NCBI GenBank assembly: GCA_017499595.2
Contig: CM039001.1
Span: 2,542,001-2,606,000 of the forward strand
Reading direction: 5' to 3'
Length of the DNA: 64,000 nucleotides
Source: Psilocybe cubensis
Taxonomy: Eukaryota
Shown: piece after piece, positions 1 through 19,600 of the stretch
Numbering within the stretch: the first letter of the stretch is position 1
Layout of the letters: every line of letters begins with the position of its first letter
Position numbers and translations under genes: made by a program
The notes under the pieces: model-generated
The model's input: the letters and a program-made list of their open reading frames with translations, nothing else
Databases searched by the model: none
Told to the model about the DNA's origin: nothing

Positions 1-310
1 ATACTACGCAAAACAAAGGTCGTTGTTTATACATTGACGTTGATGAAGTGCTGGATGTTGGTTGCGCCTCGTTGTTTGTTTGTGGGGCCGCAATATCTGA
101 GCCTGTGTGTGCAGTTGCTTGAAATTGCAAAGTTGTATCTGCAGAAGACGCGTTGTTTGGGTTTGCGTCCCATTGTTGTGCTGAGGTAGCATTGTACTGA
201 GCGTTATATGATACAGAAGGTGCCATGGGCGTTGGTTGTGTTGCCTGAGGCTGTTGCAGACGGGGATCAGCACGAGCCAGACGAGGATCTCGAGCTTTGC
301 GTGGATCCAT
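1..310 (-). CDS. SSU72: Ssu72 RNA Pol II CTD phosphatase, N-terminal part (runs off the window)
   Basis: Manual translation from ATG at 310: MDPRKARDPRLARADPRLQQP...MYKQRPLFCVV plus a T that would begin the next codon. FCVV(C) matches the lead-in to the Ssu72 catalytic CASNQNRS loop, which lies just outside the window. Not in the ORF track. Confidence 0.8.
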   Translation of the reverse strand, partial: MDPRKARDPRLARADPRLQQPQATQPTPMAPSVSYNAQYNATSAQQWDANPNNASSADTTLQFQATAHTGSDIAAPQTNNEAQPTSSTSSTSMYKQRPLFCVV

Positions 311-404
311 GTTGACACAGACGAAGTTGTATATTTAATTAGACTGTGGGTAATGCTAGTCAGCACATGTTTGAGTATGGTGATCATAAAGGTGATAAAT
401 TGGT

Positions 405-511
405 GCCTCAGCAGTATCTCGAACATTGCCAGTCTGCATGTTGACCCGTGCGATATGTGTGATATGTTATTTGCCGGGTCAATGCAGCTTCCACTCTGCG
501 TCATCGTTGGC
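405..511 (-). ncRNA. Candidate intronic box C/D snoRNA-like RNA
   Basis: Minus strand reads gcc-a-ACGATGA (C-like box, 507-501) ... CTGA-ggc (D box, 411-408), with an internal stem ctgcattgacccg/cgggtcaacatgcag. It sits inside a 194-nt GTACAT...GCTGAC...CAG intron (344-537). Confidence 0.6.
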
Positions 512-895
512 GGGAGAGAATAAAAGTAAAAATGTACCTGAATAAATAAACTTGATAGTTGATTCTCGTTATGCGTAGTATACAAGCGATCAATGGAGAA
601 GAGTAGAAAGGCAATGGAACGCGTTTGCCAATTCTGCGCGCGTCTTTCAAGTTGTTTGTCCGTAGTTGGCTCGATGACAAACCCAGCCAGCGGCGTGAGC
701 GGCCCGTTACAGGTCGTAACTACTCTCTCTTAACTCCCACTCTCGACCAAGCAGAATACTAGCATAGATACAGAGTTTTCGAGTCAACGAAAATTATTAT
801 TGTGAGGCTCTTAGAAAGCTTATCGTACAAATCTTCTGATTGTATTGACAGATAAATAAAATAATCTTATCATCTCAAGCTGCAGTTTCACCCTG

Positions 896-2552
896 ATGGC
901 TGTTGCCTTCTTAGACGTTGATGTCGACGCCGTTCATCAAGCCATCCTCACCCACGAGAGGGAAATAGGTCTGATCGATGTGAAAATTCAGGGTTTGATG
1001 CAAAGCGTTCGCCGACTACAGTTCCAGAAGGATTTACACAATGCCGAAATCAGGAAATGCAAAGGAAAGATCACCCTTGCTAGTCGACTTCCCCCCGAAA
1101 TTCTAGCATATATCTTTGAATTATGCGTGCTTGATGGCCGGACTAGGACCCCTCTAATTGTTTCCCATGTTTGTTCCTCTTGGAGGATAGCTGCAACAAC
1201 TCCAACTGTGTGGTCGCACGTTTATATCAATCTCGACTCCCGATATCCATGTCAACGTACTCAATTGTGGCTTCGAAATTCCAGACAAACCCTTCTTACG
1301 ATTGAAATCGAGATCAATGCGGATACATCTCAGTTGAAGAGTACCGTGGAAGTCCTGTTGGCCGAAATTTGGAGGTGGAAAACGTTAATATTGAAGTCGT
1401 CTTCATTGGATCCCGTTAATCAGGTTCTGCGACTCTGCGACTCGCCTGCTTCCCACCTGCGTTCAATCGAGATATCAGTGTCTCAAGAATTTCTGTCGGC
1501 AATGGATGGTCTAGACGACAATCCACACGATTTGATGGGCCTCCACGCATTGTCAGCGAAAGCACCCCTCTTTCAAACATTGCGTATCCACCGTAGCCTT
1601 GTACCGGGACGCCATAGTCTTCCTCCTTCCATTACCGATTTAACATTGCAACTAACAGACCATGATGCTCCGACCATTTTGCACTCAATGTCATCCGTTT
1701 TACGTCTTCTCGGAGAACTGCCCAACCTCGAGGTCCTTGCTTTGGAAATGCCCAGTAGGGAAAATCAATCATTTTTGTTGGATGCTCAAAATGGGCATCA
1801 GGTTGAAATTTCAAATCTTAGAGCCTTAACTTTGATGGGGGACCATAACATTTTTGGTATTTTGCCTCACTTGAGAACACCCTCTCTCTGTCACCTTACT
1901 CTTAGGTCTTCGTTAAATTACCCTCAAGCACACAACACAGGTGTTTGGATCCACCGATTTATATATGAATCTTCTCCCCCTATAACCTGCTTGGAAATAC
2001 GCGATTTGGCAGTGGATTCTAATTTTTTTAGCCAGATGTTTGAGCTCTTACCTCGGTTGGAAGACTTGCGACTTCATGATAGCGATATTCTCGATGACTC
2101 CCTCATAGAACTTCAAGGTCCGCGTGGTCTTTGTCCCATGCTTCAACGTCTGGACCTTAGATGGTGTGGGAGATTGTCAGGTCGTGCTCTCGTAAACTTG
2201 GTTCACAGTCGCCAATCGGCCCAATTGAATGGCGAACAAAGTTCTCCGTCACCATCTAAGTCGATATCGGAAATTACCCTCATCAACTGTTCGTTCGTCA
2301 AAGAAGAGGATATCGTGGATCTGGCAGAAATGACTATTTGTCGTCTCATTCATCGCGGACAAACTGATTTTTGCTGTGAGTCTTAGGATTAGCTTTGACA
2401 TGCTACTTGAACCTTTTGACCGGGTATACCTCTTTTTGATAGATTCGTATTCATGCTGCGACAATGAGAGATACCGCAGGAGACTGAAGCAACGAACTTT
2501 GTTGCATCCCGTTCTTCGTCGAAATCATGCCGGCTTTCGACTTGTATTTTAG
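896..2552 (+). CDS. F-box protein with N-terminal coiled coil and LRR-like repeats
   Basis: ASRLPPEILAYIFELC...VSHVCSSWR F-box motif and LxxLxL repeats; one intron (2377-2442) before the last exon. Confidence 0.9.
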
Positions 2553-16669: not shown

Positions 16670-19600
16670 TTACGCCTTGAGATTGACTCTCTTGCGCTTT
16701 TTACCCTCGGCAATCATAGCTTTTACTTTTTCTTCGTCCATATTTTCTTCTTCATAGAATTGAGCGGTCCGTTCCGAGTCATTTTTGCGTCGAATAAAAT
16801 GTAATGCAGCTAGATTATAGCTGATTACGTCCTTCTGCTTTTGCAGAGCAAGGCGCAAATGTGTTCGAAGAGGGATTAATGTTGTTCTCATAATGCGGTT
16901 GGCAACAATTTGATGATGATGGGTTTTGAGGAGGAAGAAAATAATTCGTGATACCAACGTAATGTTCCAACCCTGAAAAAAGATGATTCAGTATTTTATT
17001 GAAAGTGGATCTGGAGAGATTTACTTTTTGTGCCCAGATGTTTAAGTACACCATAAGTGACACAACCTTGTCAAAAGGTAGAACAAGGAGAGCATCCTGC
17101 AATGCGGTGCTGGGAACCTTTTCGACAACTCTTAAAACGTATGCTTCAGGTTCCAGATCGTACGCCGCTAGCAATGGATTTCTAGCTGGAGGTTGCATAC
17201 GCATTGCGTCGTCTTCCGACAGTTTCGCCATGGCTTGTTCATATTCTCTGAACGTTTCACGCTCAGTATCTGCGAGTTCAATGGCTTCCATGATCTTTTC
17301 TCCTGCCATGAGGGTTTCAGTAGTTTGTTTCGATACCGCCGAGGCTTCGGCTTCCATAGAACCGTTGGCTGTGTCTCCCTCAACGCCGCTCCCAACCGGC
17401 CCATCCACACGATTCAGTGCATCAGCAATCCCGCTTTCGTAGAGCTTTTCGAGCTCTTTTTCCCGTTCTTCTTCAAGGAACAACTAATTGCATCGATTAG
17501 TATTATTCAGCATATTGCTCTATATGTAACCCACCGGTTCGTCAAGCTTTTCCCAAACTCGAATGGATTTATCGTGTGATCCAGTGACGACAAAATTACC
17601 GTGATGACTGAGGGTTAGTGCCCATATCTCACCATGGTGGCCTTCGAGCTTTTGGATTCCCTCGAACTAGATAAATGGCCCTTAGAGAAGGTATTCGGTC
17701 GCTTAGTGTGTTAGTGTGATCACCAACCTTGTCACCATCCCAATACTTGAGTAGTTTGTCCTTTCCAACGGTCCAAAAGTAGTGTGAATTTTTTTCAAAC
17801 GCAACTTGCATCACACTTTCCTCATGTGCAAAGATGGATTTGTGGCAGTCTCCGAAGTCCAGGCCCCAGATTTTCACATTCTTGTCTGCAGAACAGGTCA
17901 CAATCAACTTGGAATCATCTGATATGTCCATGGAAAGTACTGGCAACTGTAGACATTATATCAGGCTTGTTATAGAACCAGAATGATCTACGAACCTTGT
18001 GTCCGTATAAAGACAAAAAAAATTTCAAGCTGTCTTGATAGAACACCTTCACGGTTGAATCCAAAAGAGCAACAGCCAAGAACTTGCTGTTGGGACTATA
18101 ACGGACAGCTAGCACATCATCCGCCATTTTCAACGTGCGTATGTGTGTCAAAGAAAGAAGCTTTCCACTTTGTACCTGTGCACAAAAAGTAAGAACAGTA
18201 AGATCGAATCAAAGAAAGATACCGACGCTTTCTTCGGTAGCATCTTTCTGTTCTATTGACCAAAATTTGACATCCTTATCCGCGCTCCCAGTAACAAGAG
18301 CTTCACCGTCTGAGCGTACGTGCATGGACCAAACAGTTGCGGTATGAGCTTTTATGGTTTCAATGAGAGTCGACGATGCAATATCGTAGATGAGAATTTC
18401 TCCAGACTTAGTCCCAACAGCAATCTAAACGTCTGATTAGAACTGCAAACAAACGTGATTAACATGCAACCAACATGTCGGTCCCCAGGCAGGAATGTGC
18501 TACAGATAGCATATCCACACTCTATAGTGCGTATACACTGTGTCGTTTTCATGTTCCAAATTTTTACCGAACCTTGAAGAAAATGTTGAGATAAACAAAG
18601 GACAAGCTAGTGCCGAACACCAACCATTGGATCCCGAGGCCAGTATCTGATCGTCAGAGCTAAGGCACAGCGTTCTAACATCTGCTCTATGTCCCGGAAG
18701 ATCCACAACAAAGTTGCGGGTAGCTTCTGGAGGTTCGTCTTTTGATTTGGTTGGATGTGGTATATTGTAAACTTCCAAAGCATTTGAAGACAATGCAACA
18801 AGGATCTAAAAAAACATCCTAGCTAAGTACAGATTGATATTGTGATTGAGGTGGAACTTGCCTGGGCGACACCCTTGGACGATGACTGAATTGATCGAAA
18901 GTCAAATGACCGGATTTTGCCACTTGCCCGTACAACAAGGTGGGGGGTGATGAAATCCACTATGTTGCTCTCCATATCCACACCCTCATTGTTATCTTCC
19001 GCATTCATTTTAACACCATCGACCTTGGTCATTTCTTGACGCTTCTTCTCTTCCAAACGCCTCTTCCTTCGGGCCTGCTTTTTTCTAACTTCGCCTGCTG
19101 TTCGGATACGGAAGATTTCGACAGACCGATCATGGGATTGAACCGCAAAATATGGTTGAACAGGATGAAATTGAATTTGTGAAACCCTGTGCTTCGAAGC
19201 AAGAGGAAGACTTGACACAGGTTCTATCATCTTTGCGACCTAAGTTGCCAGCAGTTAGAGATATATATCACACAAAAGAAAATTAGCCAACCTCTCCAGT
19301 TTCGGTTTCTTTAAGGCCTTTTGCCAAAGCTTCGCGGTCAAATTTCCAGACTTTGAGTTCTCCCTCACCGCTACCAGTGAAAATGAGGTTTTGTTCTTGA
19401 TTGATTGCTAATGACCAAATTTCAGAGCGATGTGCAACAACAGTTTGAACGCAATGTTGAGTAGTCAAGTCCCAAAGTTTCATAAAAGTATCTTTCGAAG
19501 CAGTGACAAGGAGGGCAGGCGCTGTAGATGTAGATGTAGATGGTTGGTCCTCAGAGGTGGAAAGAAATTGAATGGCGGTGATCTGATCGCGATGACCACG

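Follow-up and report, generated by a model that had tools for sequence, protein, structure and literature searches.

The window considered here is a 64,000-nucleotide (nt) stretch of Psilocybe cubensis DNA (assembly GCA_017499595.2, contig CM039001.1, positions 2,542,001 to 2,606,000 of the forward strand, numbered below from its first letter), and its left end carries the start of SSU72, read from the minus strand, together with a 5' leader in which a 107-nt unit at 511..405 (minus) is very probably a genuine, conserved box C/D small nucleolar RNA (snoRNA) gene, lying between a splice donor in use at 537 and a predicted branch site and acceptor. The open reading frame (ORF) 310..2 encodes 103 amino acids that are 100% identical to the N-terminus of a 286-amino-acid protein (P0001) with the Ssu72-like Pfam domain PF04722, and on this homology the host gene of the candidate RNA is confirmed as SSU72, the assignment that a model had already made in an earlier sequence-only reading of this DNA; the 103-residue fragment searched by itself returned no Pfam domain. 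A protein search with the window's Ssu72 retrieved six proteins at E ≤0.001 among 314 candidates, the next-best named match being a Psilocybe protein at 61% identity. Upstream of the SSU72 ATG (310-308) there is a gap of 33 nt to an AG at 345-344 (context cccacAG), just where the intron had been said to end, and the minus strand at 540-532 reads cag/GTACAT with a donor GT at 537-536, giving an interval of 194 nt from GT to AG; a pyrimidine-rich stretch of 25 nt then separates the donor at 537 from the GCC (511-509) that opens the unit. From 5' to 3' the unit and its parts are as follows.

405..511, minus strand: box C/D snoRNA unit, 107 nt from the GCC stem to the GGC stem (match of covariance model R1, described below, at 400-515, 96.3 bits, E 9.3e-21; blastn block 512..405).
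509..511, minus strand: 5' half of the terminal stem, GCC, then spacer A508; pairs with GGC 407-405 in kink-turn (K-turn) register.
501..507, minus strand: box C, ACGAUGA; GATGA is an invariant column block in alignment A1 (below), the first letter is a purine in 43/43 and the second varies.
488..500, minus strand: antisense block 1, CGCAGAGUGGAAG, with family consensus UUCAGAGUGGAAU; AGAGTGGA is invariant in A1 and the block is 95% identical pairwise.
484..487, minus strand: degenerate box D', CUGC (CUGA in the L010 group), from the sequence and its relatives.
434..487, minus strand: internal hairpin, its base UGACCC/GGGUCA conserved and its top varying in length (RNAfold of 37 homologues; base 90.7% paired).
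433..439, minus strand: degenerate box C', AUGCAGA (AUGAUGA in L003, UUGAUGA in L012); columns G..GAC are invariant.
412..426, minus strand: antisense block 2, AUGUUCGAGAUACUG; GATACT and GTTC are conserved on either side of 1-2 nt that differ among relatives or are deleted.
408..411, minus strand: box D, CUGA, invariant in 46/46 distinct aligned sequences.
405..407, minus strand: 3' half of the terminal stem, GGC; pairs with GCC 511-509 and covaries.

Box C, box D and a terminal stem in K-turn register, the marks of a box C/D snoRNA, are thus all present, and the 107-nt arrangement gcc-a-ACGATGA...CTGA-ggc that had been described from the letters is exact at 511..405. Also on the minus strand, the letters between box C and CTGC (500-488) are CGCAGAGTGGAAG, those between C' and box D (432-412) are CTGGCAATGTTCGAGATACTG, and the string adjoining box D at 428-412 is caatgttcgagatactg.

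The evidence that carries this reading is comparative. Ssu72 loci were fetched from metagenome contigs with the full-length protein (222 stretches matched, 124 of them encode a relative, and the best 80 were used), and when window positions 700..311 were compared with these 80 loci by blastn, the sole part that aligned was 512..405, in other words the candidate unit. Positions 447-406 are identical over 42/42 nt in L044, L045 and L052, positions 426-407 match at 20/20 or 19/20 in loci with much more distant Ssu72 proteins, and this same 20-mer recurs at ≤4 mismatches in 55 of the 80 loci. Alignment A1 consists of 36 distinct full-length homologues plus the window, 37 in all with identical copies collapsed, and omits four of the 55 (L001, L003, L006 and L012), whose C side was missed by the search pattern; the columns without any variation comprise GATGA in box C and CTGA in box D, AGAGTGGA in block 1 and both TG.TC and GATACT in block 2, the C of D' together with G..GAC of C', and GGGT in the base of the hairpin. 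R1, a covariance model with nine pairs, was then searched against the window and the 80 loci at E ≤1 and gave 61 matches, namely the window, 59 loci and a second copy in L033, eight of the matched loci (L018, L032, L034, L074, L001, L003, L006 and L012) being outside its training set; four of these, the divergent L018 group (L018, L032, L034, L074), score ~40 bits (E 3e-7 to 6e-7) and possess a perfect 7-bp terminal stem, GGTCGCC/GGCGACC.

The unit lies 58-169 nt before the ATG in 59/59 loci whose match includes residue 1 of Ssu72 and whose upstream sequence extends for 139 nt or more; the remaining 21 of the 80 have no upstream sequence or no N-terminal match, and three among them (L036, L046 and L077) have >1.9 kb upstream and no R1 match. 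Ungapped pairwise comparison of 22 hand-picked sequences (210 comparable of 231 pairs for the C-box end and block 1) gave 95% identity for the C-box end plus block 1 and 88% for block 2 plus box D, with 30% and 28% for the 52-nt flanks, and conservation of the unit among relatives is, on these sequence comparisons, far beyond chance. Judged by the proteins, no fewer than two orders are represented in the family, by Agaricales-like and Russulales-like fungi, and further groups besides, since the N-terminal exon of L017-type loci is 71-72% identical to Russula proteins and the window's own protein is closest to Psilocybe; the L018-type N-terminal exon has its best named match, at 48%, in a Boletales protein and has no close named relative. 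The second copy in L033 (1744-1858, 89 bits) lies ~2 kb upstream of the SSU72-linked copy in a Russulaceae-type locus; its upstream flank is duplicated as well, its block 2 (GATGATCG) and hairpin base are altered, and it has the appearance of a partial segmental duplicate.

The stems vary in the manner of paired RNA. In a model-fitted alignment of 46 distinct rows, 85.1% of the cells are paired, vs 78.6±0.9 in shuffles, and 24 cells are changed on both sides, vs 7.8±2.6, neither value being reached in any of 500 shuffles, although such an alignment leans to the model and relatedness among the rows inflates the shuffle test. When the partner column is slid by one to three columns, pairing falls to 31-60%, and these slid controls and the stem variants visible in the raw sequences agree with the covariation. 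The hairpin base accounts for double changes of C-G to U-A in 12 cells and of G-C to A-U in 4 cells, and in the terminal stem 74.4% of cells pair and all three pairs show double changes, the stem being longer and covarying in relatives (for example, GGAGCC/GGCTCC or GGTCGCC/GGCGACC). The stretch from D' to C' folds as a hairpin in 37/37 sequences, with a conserved base and a top that varies in length; in the window RNAfold gives 6+7 bp (487-482/439-434 and 481-475/448-442) plus two inner pairs, so that the bulged hairpin noticed in the sequence-only reading is there, with these pairs in place of the 5+8 bp it counted.

That reading had also placed the hairpin where the C' and D' boxes would normally be, and here it needs correction: a degenerate D' (487-484) and a degenerate C' (439-433) flank it. 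The window's CUGC and AUGCAGA can alternatively pair as a plain helix, but both boxes become canonical in some relatives (D' is CUGA in the L010 group and C' is AUGAUGA in L003, with UUGAUGA in L012), and for this reason the hairpin is better read as lying between the boxes than as replacing them, a position from which it would close an internal kink-turn. The single mismatch that had been noted in box C is present, but it falls at the one freely varying position of the family's C box, where the 43 distinct sequences with the box divide into 26 with C, 7 with A, 5 with G and 5 with U as second letter, and the first letter is a purine in all 43; L004, L013, L014, L063 and L080 have the canonical RUGAUGA (GUGAUGA or AUGAUGA). 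The second letter of a C box is the nucleotide looped out of the K-turn. With the unit in front of SSU72 in 59 of 59 assessable loci, and with invariant boxes and covarying stems in the aligned sequences, both signs that had been proposed as checks on orthologous leaders are present, and the core of the sequence-only reading, a box C/D non-coding RNA hosted in the SSU72 5' leader, holds up well.

The leader itself, in which the snoRNA is most likely intron-encoded as judged from the splice signals around it, contains the following further features.

538..567, minus strand: SSU72 non-coding exon 1, at least 30 nt (an X1 contig covers 567..538 and joins to 487).
488..537, minus strand: 50-nt spliced intron whose acceptor AG, 489-488, is inside the snoRNA at the end of block 1 (joint 487/538, GT..AG, X1 depth 255; absent in X3 and X4).
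344..537, minus strand: predicted host intron of the 5' untranslated region (UTR), GT 537-536 through CTGAC 363-359 to AG 345-344 (sequence, donor used in X1, comparative signals).
359..363, minus strand: predicted branch site CTGAC of this outer intron (sequence; CTRAY similarly placed in most relatives examined).
356..439, minus strand: upstream ORF (uORF) of 28 codons, ATG 439-437 to TAG 358-356, only in transcripts that keep the stretch and kept in the X1 contig.
2..310, minus strand: SSU72 first coding exon, which runs off the window (100% identical to the N-terminus of P0001, 286 amino acids, PF04722).

No sequencing run listed as RNA contains this stretch; X1 and X2 are small assemblies presumed, as a guess, to derive from RNA, and X3 and X4 are DNA assemblies. 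X1 and X2 carry 50-nt GT..AG skips (488..537 on the minus strand and 802..851 on the plus strand) that are absent from the colinear X3 and X4. The X1 contig (2104 nt, minus sense) joins 567..538 to 487 and then continues unbroken from 487 to 1, the X2 contig is unbroken from 357 to 1 and has four unaligned letters beyond 357, and the lack of contig cover at 579-850 in X1 and at 375-714 in X2 is a gap from which nothing is concluded; such contigs reveal neither RNA ends nor levels. Donor 537 is therefore real and in use, and its splice to 488 takes out box C of the unit. The acceptor at 344 is used in neither RNA-like contig, both running unbroken through 344, so that of the 194-nt intron read from the letters the donor stands, by the X1 joint and by comparative splice signals, and the 537/344 junction is seen in no contig; this does not amount to showing its absence because contigs drop minor forms, and if 343 were preceded by a short exon 1, the result would be a tip of the kind that assemblers clip.

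The comparative signals were judged by eye in 21 loci hand-picked from the 52 genomic loci with a match, and in 21/21 there is both a donor-like GT (G/GT or T/GT) 20-40 nt upstream of the unit and a pyrimidine-rich tract leading to an AG shortly before the ATG, with CTRAY in most. In mammalian introns the 3' end of a snoRNA lies some 40-60 nt upstream of the branch point. In the window the donor precedes the unit by 25 nt and the AG follows it by 61 nt, and the distance from the unit's end at 405 to the predicted branch-site A (A360 of CTGAC) is 45 nt, within that range.

Taken together, I would propose that the snoRNA is transcribed as part of the SSU72 pre-mRNA, that the core small nucleolar ribonucleoprotein (snoRNP) proteins may assemble on the C/D kink-turn GCC-A-ACGAUGA...CUGA-GGC, and that exonucleases may trim the RNA to ~105 nt, either from the excised intron or from the unspliced leader. 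A stable RNA released from the 537..344 intron as a snoRNP could then act in trans, the blocks upstream of D' and D pairing with a conserved cellular RNA, and this pairing might serve 2'-O-methylation or a chaperone-type contact.

Several results weigh against this reading and are gathered here. When the pattern, defined as a C box with ≤1 mismatch and a CTGA at a distance of 60-150 nt, joined by a 3-bp stem in K-turn register, was counted on both strands, the window had 7 instances vs 4.0±1.7 in 20 dinucleotide shuffles (maximum 7), meaning that the box-and-stem pattern taken alone is at chance level and that the reality of the unit is argued from its conservation in relatives; nor is the fold of 515..400 unusual (z = -1.14, 22/200 shuffles equally stable). 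Rfam, which had been suggested as a check, was run and leaves the unit without a family: there are no matches at gathering thresholds across the whole window, and none for the unit at E ≤10 either in the window or in 10 relatives' loci. The canonical U at the second letter of box C occurs in only 5/43 sequences, members of the Russulaceae-type group have only a weak terminal stem in register (in 22/43 cells pair 6/211 does not form), and in place of a stable ~105-nt RNA the RNA-like contigs show splicing into the unit at 488 and run-through of the unit.

The remaining points on this side come from the target search, for which ribosomal DNA (rDNA) was taken from eukaryote rDNA that contaminates bacterial and archaeal assemblies, found by a primer-site scan at no fewer than 62 loci. 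Six whole rDNA contigs contain, by Rfam, two complete small-subunit (SSU) genes, one complete large-subunit (LSU) gene with two overlapping LSU parts, and two 5.8S genes; they come from eukaryotes that are perhaps not Agaricomycetes, and lineage-specific expansion segments are not covered. On the sense 18S, 5.8S and 25S-type ribosomal RNA (rRNA) of this reference, no canonical antisense match (≥10 nt upstream of D or D', the nucleotide to be modified facing the fifth) was found for either block, and 62 of the loci, searched for ~2 kb in both directions from the LSU 5' end, offered nothing better. The best site for block 1 is CUUUUACUUUGAA in 18S, with 9 Watson-Crick and 3 G-U pairs and a wobble at the methylation position, the best sense-strand rRNA site for the window's block 2 has 3 mismatches, and the longest paired runs including G-U are 8-10, near chance for 5.4 kb (the best 18S runs being 10 for block 1 and 8 for block 2). 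Furthermore, the middle of block 2 varies (GUUC-GA-GAUACU, -UA-, -UG-, or -A- with one base fewer), and a variable or deleted nucleotide at this point is unusual for a methylation guide, a feature which a bulged or two-part pairing fits better than a plain methylation duplex.

Since neither block matches the 18S, 5.8S or 25S-type reference rRNA, the RNA is for now an orphan, one of the possibilities that the sequence-only reading had raised. Two candidate pairings were rejected, as was a further resemblance. The 12-bp match of block 2 at L143 7060 lies in spacer on the strand opposite to the rRNA, with no RNA family there, and is put down to chance; block 2 of the L018 type pairs at 12/13 with 5.8S, but with the mismatch at the methylation position and in that variant alone; and likenesses of the blocks to transfer RNA (tRNA) D- and T-loops or to RNA polymerase III A and B boxes were dropped because the B-like part is not conserved. 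A partial fit of block 2 to the branch-site region of U2 is not claimed. Among the Ssu72 loci every perfect complement was the antisense of the snoRNA itself, and no tRNAs were found in the window or in 48 loci. Five rDNA-contaminated assemblies held no mushroom-type LSU pieces, the 11-mer complement of block 1 occurred only in large bacterial contigs at about the rate of a reversed-pattern control, and a conserved LSU 16-mer sought in viral contigs turned up at 15 loci, all without rDNA context. As an observation in its own right, at least 62 contigs of public bacterial and archaeal assemblies carry eukaryote rDNA by contamination (L081-L148), with complete 18S-5.8S-25S units on contaminant contigs of 4-9 kb.

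The alternative that survives best is that the orphan acts chiefly in cis, as a sensor within the SSU72 pre-mRNA that ties SSU72 output to snoRNP supply, and I consider it unlikely as the main role, although it is compatible with action in trans. With the snoRNP assembled, the C-box region and the AG at 488 would be hidden, the outer intron 537..344 removed and a short, clean leader made; without it, acceptor 488 would be used or the intron kept, yielding a leader with the 28-codon uORF or a transcript that begins with the snoRNA, so that snoRNP assembly would pick between whole-intron removal, the cryptic inner acceptor and intron-keeping SSU72 transcripts. X1 does join donor 537 to 488 within the unit and keeps 487..344 with the uORF 439..356, and no trans target was found in the rRNA tested. 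Seven contigs from relatives (L001-L007) are cDNA-like, their Ssu72 match being uninterrupted over ~800-880 nt vs ~1050-1160 nt in genomic loci, and despite the lost coding introns all seven keep the snoRNA-bearing stretch along with the AG and branch site that follow it; L005 alone has exon 1 and the GT as well, and the other six begin within the intron or the snoRNA. There is, moreover, a precedent in SNORD86/NOP56, as described in the review PMC11028025. However, an AG at 488 is found in only 10 of 39 distinct sequences (the others having GGAAU or GGAGU there) and the inner acceptor must accordingly be lineage-specific, the uORF, which the X1 isoform keeps and whose ATG is part of the C' box, is not conserved among relatives, and the 12-13 invariant nucleotides of the antisense blocks better suit a trans partner. 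The contig ends and the path chosen through the intron can be assembler artefacts, and what the cDNA-like contigs display could be intron retention, transcripts starting at the snoRNA or, equally, an assembler's choice of the longer path.

It is decidedly improbable that the snoRNA is transcribed as a separate unit upstream of SSU72, or from a start site other than that of the mRNA, with the leader contigs as read-through or minor forms and no processing from a spliced intron. The six of seven cDNA-like contigs without exon 1 and the missing junction to 344 would suit such an arrangement, but X1 makes use of donor 537, which precedes the unit by 25 nt, the donor-like GT 20-40 nt upstream and the AG downstream, in most cases with a branch-site motif, recur in 21/21 genomic loci examined, and L005 has exon 1, GT, snoRNA and coding sequence on one contig. 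It is more improbable still that this conserved leader or intron element makes no snoRNP and is, for example, a protein-binding or splicing-control structure whose C/D likeness is incidental: the unit has no match in the rRNA tested and none in Rfam, and a stable RNA is so far a prediction, yet the full C/D layout is there in the right order, spacing and K-turn register, the degenerate C' and D' become canonical in some lineages, and it is by a hairpin of this kind, variable in length and covarying at its base, that a C'/D' motif is closed. A chance origin of the motifs in an unremarkable long intron, with which the chance-level motif count and the fold z of -1.14 would agree, deserves next to no credence, being refuted by the 59/59 syntenic copies and by blocks 88-95% identical vs 28-30% for the flanks.

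Two other stretches of the window resemble snoRNAs. The sole unit with an exact C box is at 16913-16976 on the plus strand (ATGATGA...CTGA, 3-bp stem, 71 nt), such units occurring 0.15 times per window in shuffles, and at 836-878 on the minus strand, between the two genes at this end of the window, there is a weak Rfam match to plant snoR14 (20.3 bits vs a gathering threshold of 40, E 1.3) that is most likely chance. The divergent neighbour of SSU72 is an F-box-like gene (ORF 896-2386, plus strand, PF12937, ATG at 896) with a 50-nt GT..AG intron in its own 5' leader (802-851, plus strand), seen as a joint in the X2 contig, and the two genes have a common promoter region of ~160-300 nt. Public annotations from Psilocybe, Arthromyces and Marasmius (P0002, P0074 and P0078) join Ssu72 to proteasome alpha and/or peroxiredoxin domains in single proteins of 536-772 amino acids, and these are probably merged gene models near the SSU72 locus.

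The box C/D snoRNAs of mushroom-forming fungi are almost uncatalogued, and an SSU72 leader intron with its snoRNA is easily missed or mis-modelled in annotation. With a covariance model, a fixed host synteny and two invariant blocks without an rRNA match, the SSU72 family is well suited to testing whether fungal snoRNAs have non-rRNA targets or roles in cis. Among the titles listed in literature searches there was no paper on a snoRNA in SSU72 and no Agaricomycetes snoRNA catalogue, although supplementary lists may hold relatives, and my verdict is that this is a novel family within a known class, the box C/D snoRNAs, that is not in Rfam, the nearest orphan catalogues being compared by description only. 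Yeast work is reported to link Ssu72 to non-coding RNA termination (PMC6265451), and a host with that link makes a feedback loop worth testing.

Among known systems, yeast U18/snR18 and U24/snR24 are intron-encoded box C/D methylation guides. The SSU72 unit resembles these, and the intronic C/D snoRNAs of Neurospora crassa (Nc CD, PMC2780460), in the order C, D', C', D (with D' and C' degenerate in the window), in its short stem in K-turn register, in having an antisense block directly upstream of both D' and D, and in lying in the sense orientation within a predicted host intron ~45 nt before the predicted branch site. It differs from them in having no complementarity to the rRNA tested, no Rfam family and a variable or deleted nucleotide inside block 2, and in a host that is a transcription-termination phosphatase gene and not a translation or ribosome gene, with the intron in the 5' UTR. 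The Neurospora survey also describes C/D snoRNAs aimed at small nuclear RNAs (snRNAs) and tRNAs and two orphans among 55 (PMC2780460). It is the C/D architecture without a known rRNA or snRNA target that the SSU72 RNA has in common with fungal orphans, such as Nc CD53 and CD55 and the 39 orphan families in a wider fungal survey (PMC5824354), whose seeds came from five ascomycetes and with which the SSU72 family is compared by description; by that survey's own account, the choice of seed species sets the reach of its search by homology, so that families of other origin escape it, and U14, snR190 and snR48 were reported as undetected in Basidiomycota (PMC5824354). U14 itself invites comparison, having the same succession of box C, conserved block, variable stem-loop, conserved block and box D, but U14 identity requires two blocks complementary to 18S, and because neither block here pairs with complete 18S, the SSU72 RNA is not U14.

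By analogy, the closest precedent for the isoforms of the SSU72 leader is SNORD86 in the human NOP56 pre-mRNA, described (Lykke-Andersen et al., 2018, as related in the review PMC11028025) as an orphan with a cis effect on host splicing and with transcripts that end 5' in the snoRNA. The two systems differ in that the inner acceptor is not conserved across the SSU72 family, Ssu72 is not a snoRNP core protein and a dependence of splicing on snoRNP assembly is hypothetical for SSU72. They are alike in placing an orphan C/D snoRNA in a gene of the snoRNA pathway, in an alternative splice choice at the snoRNA and, for SSU72, in the abundance of snoRNA-keeping transcripts in assemblies. If a cis role were true, the level of Ssu72, at once a snoRNA-termination factor and a phosphatase of the polymerase C-terminal domain (CTD), would be tied to snoRNP assembly capacity, and fungi would have, in the SSU72 leader, their own parallel to the SNORD86/NOP56 circuit, one that has kept its place in at least two mushroom-forming orders.

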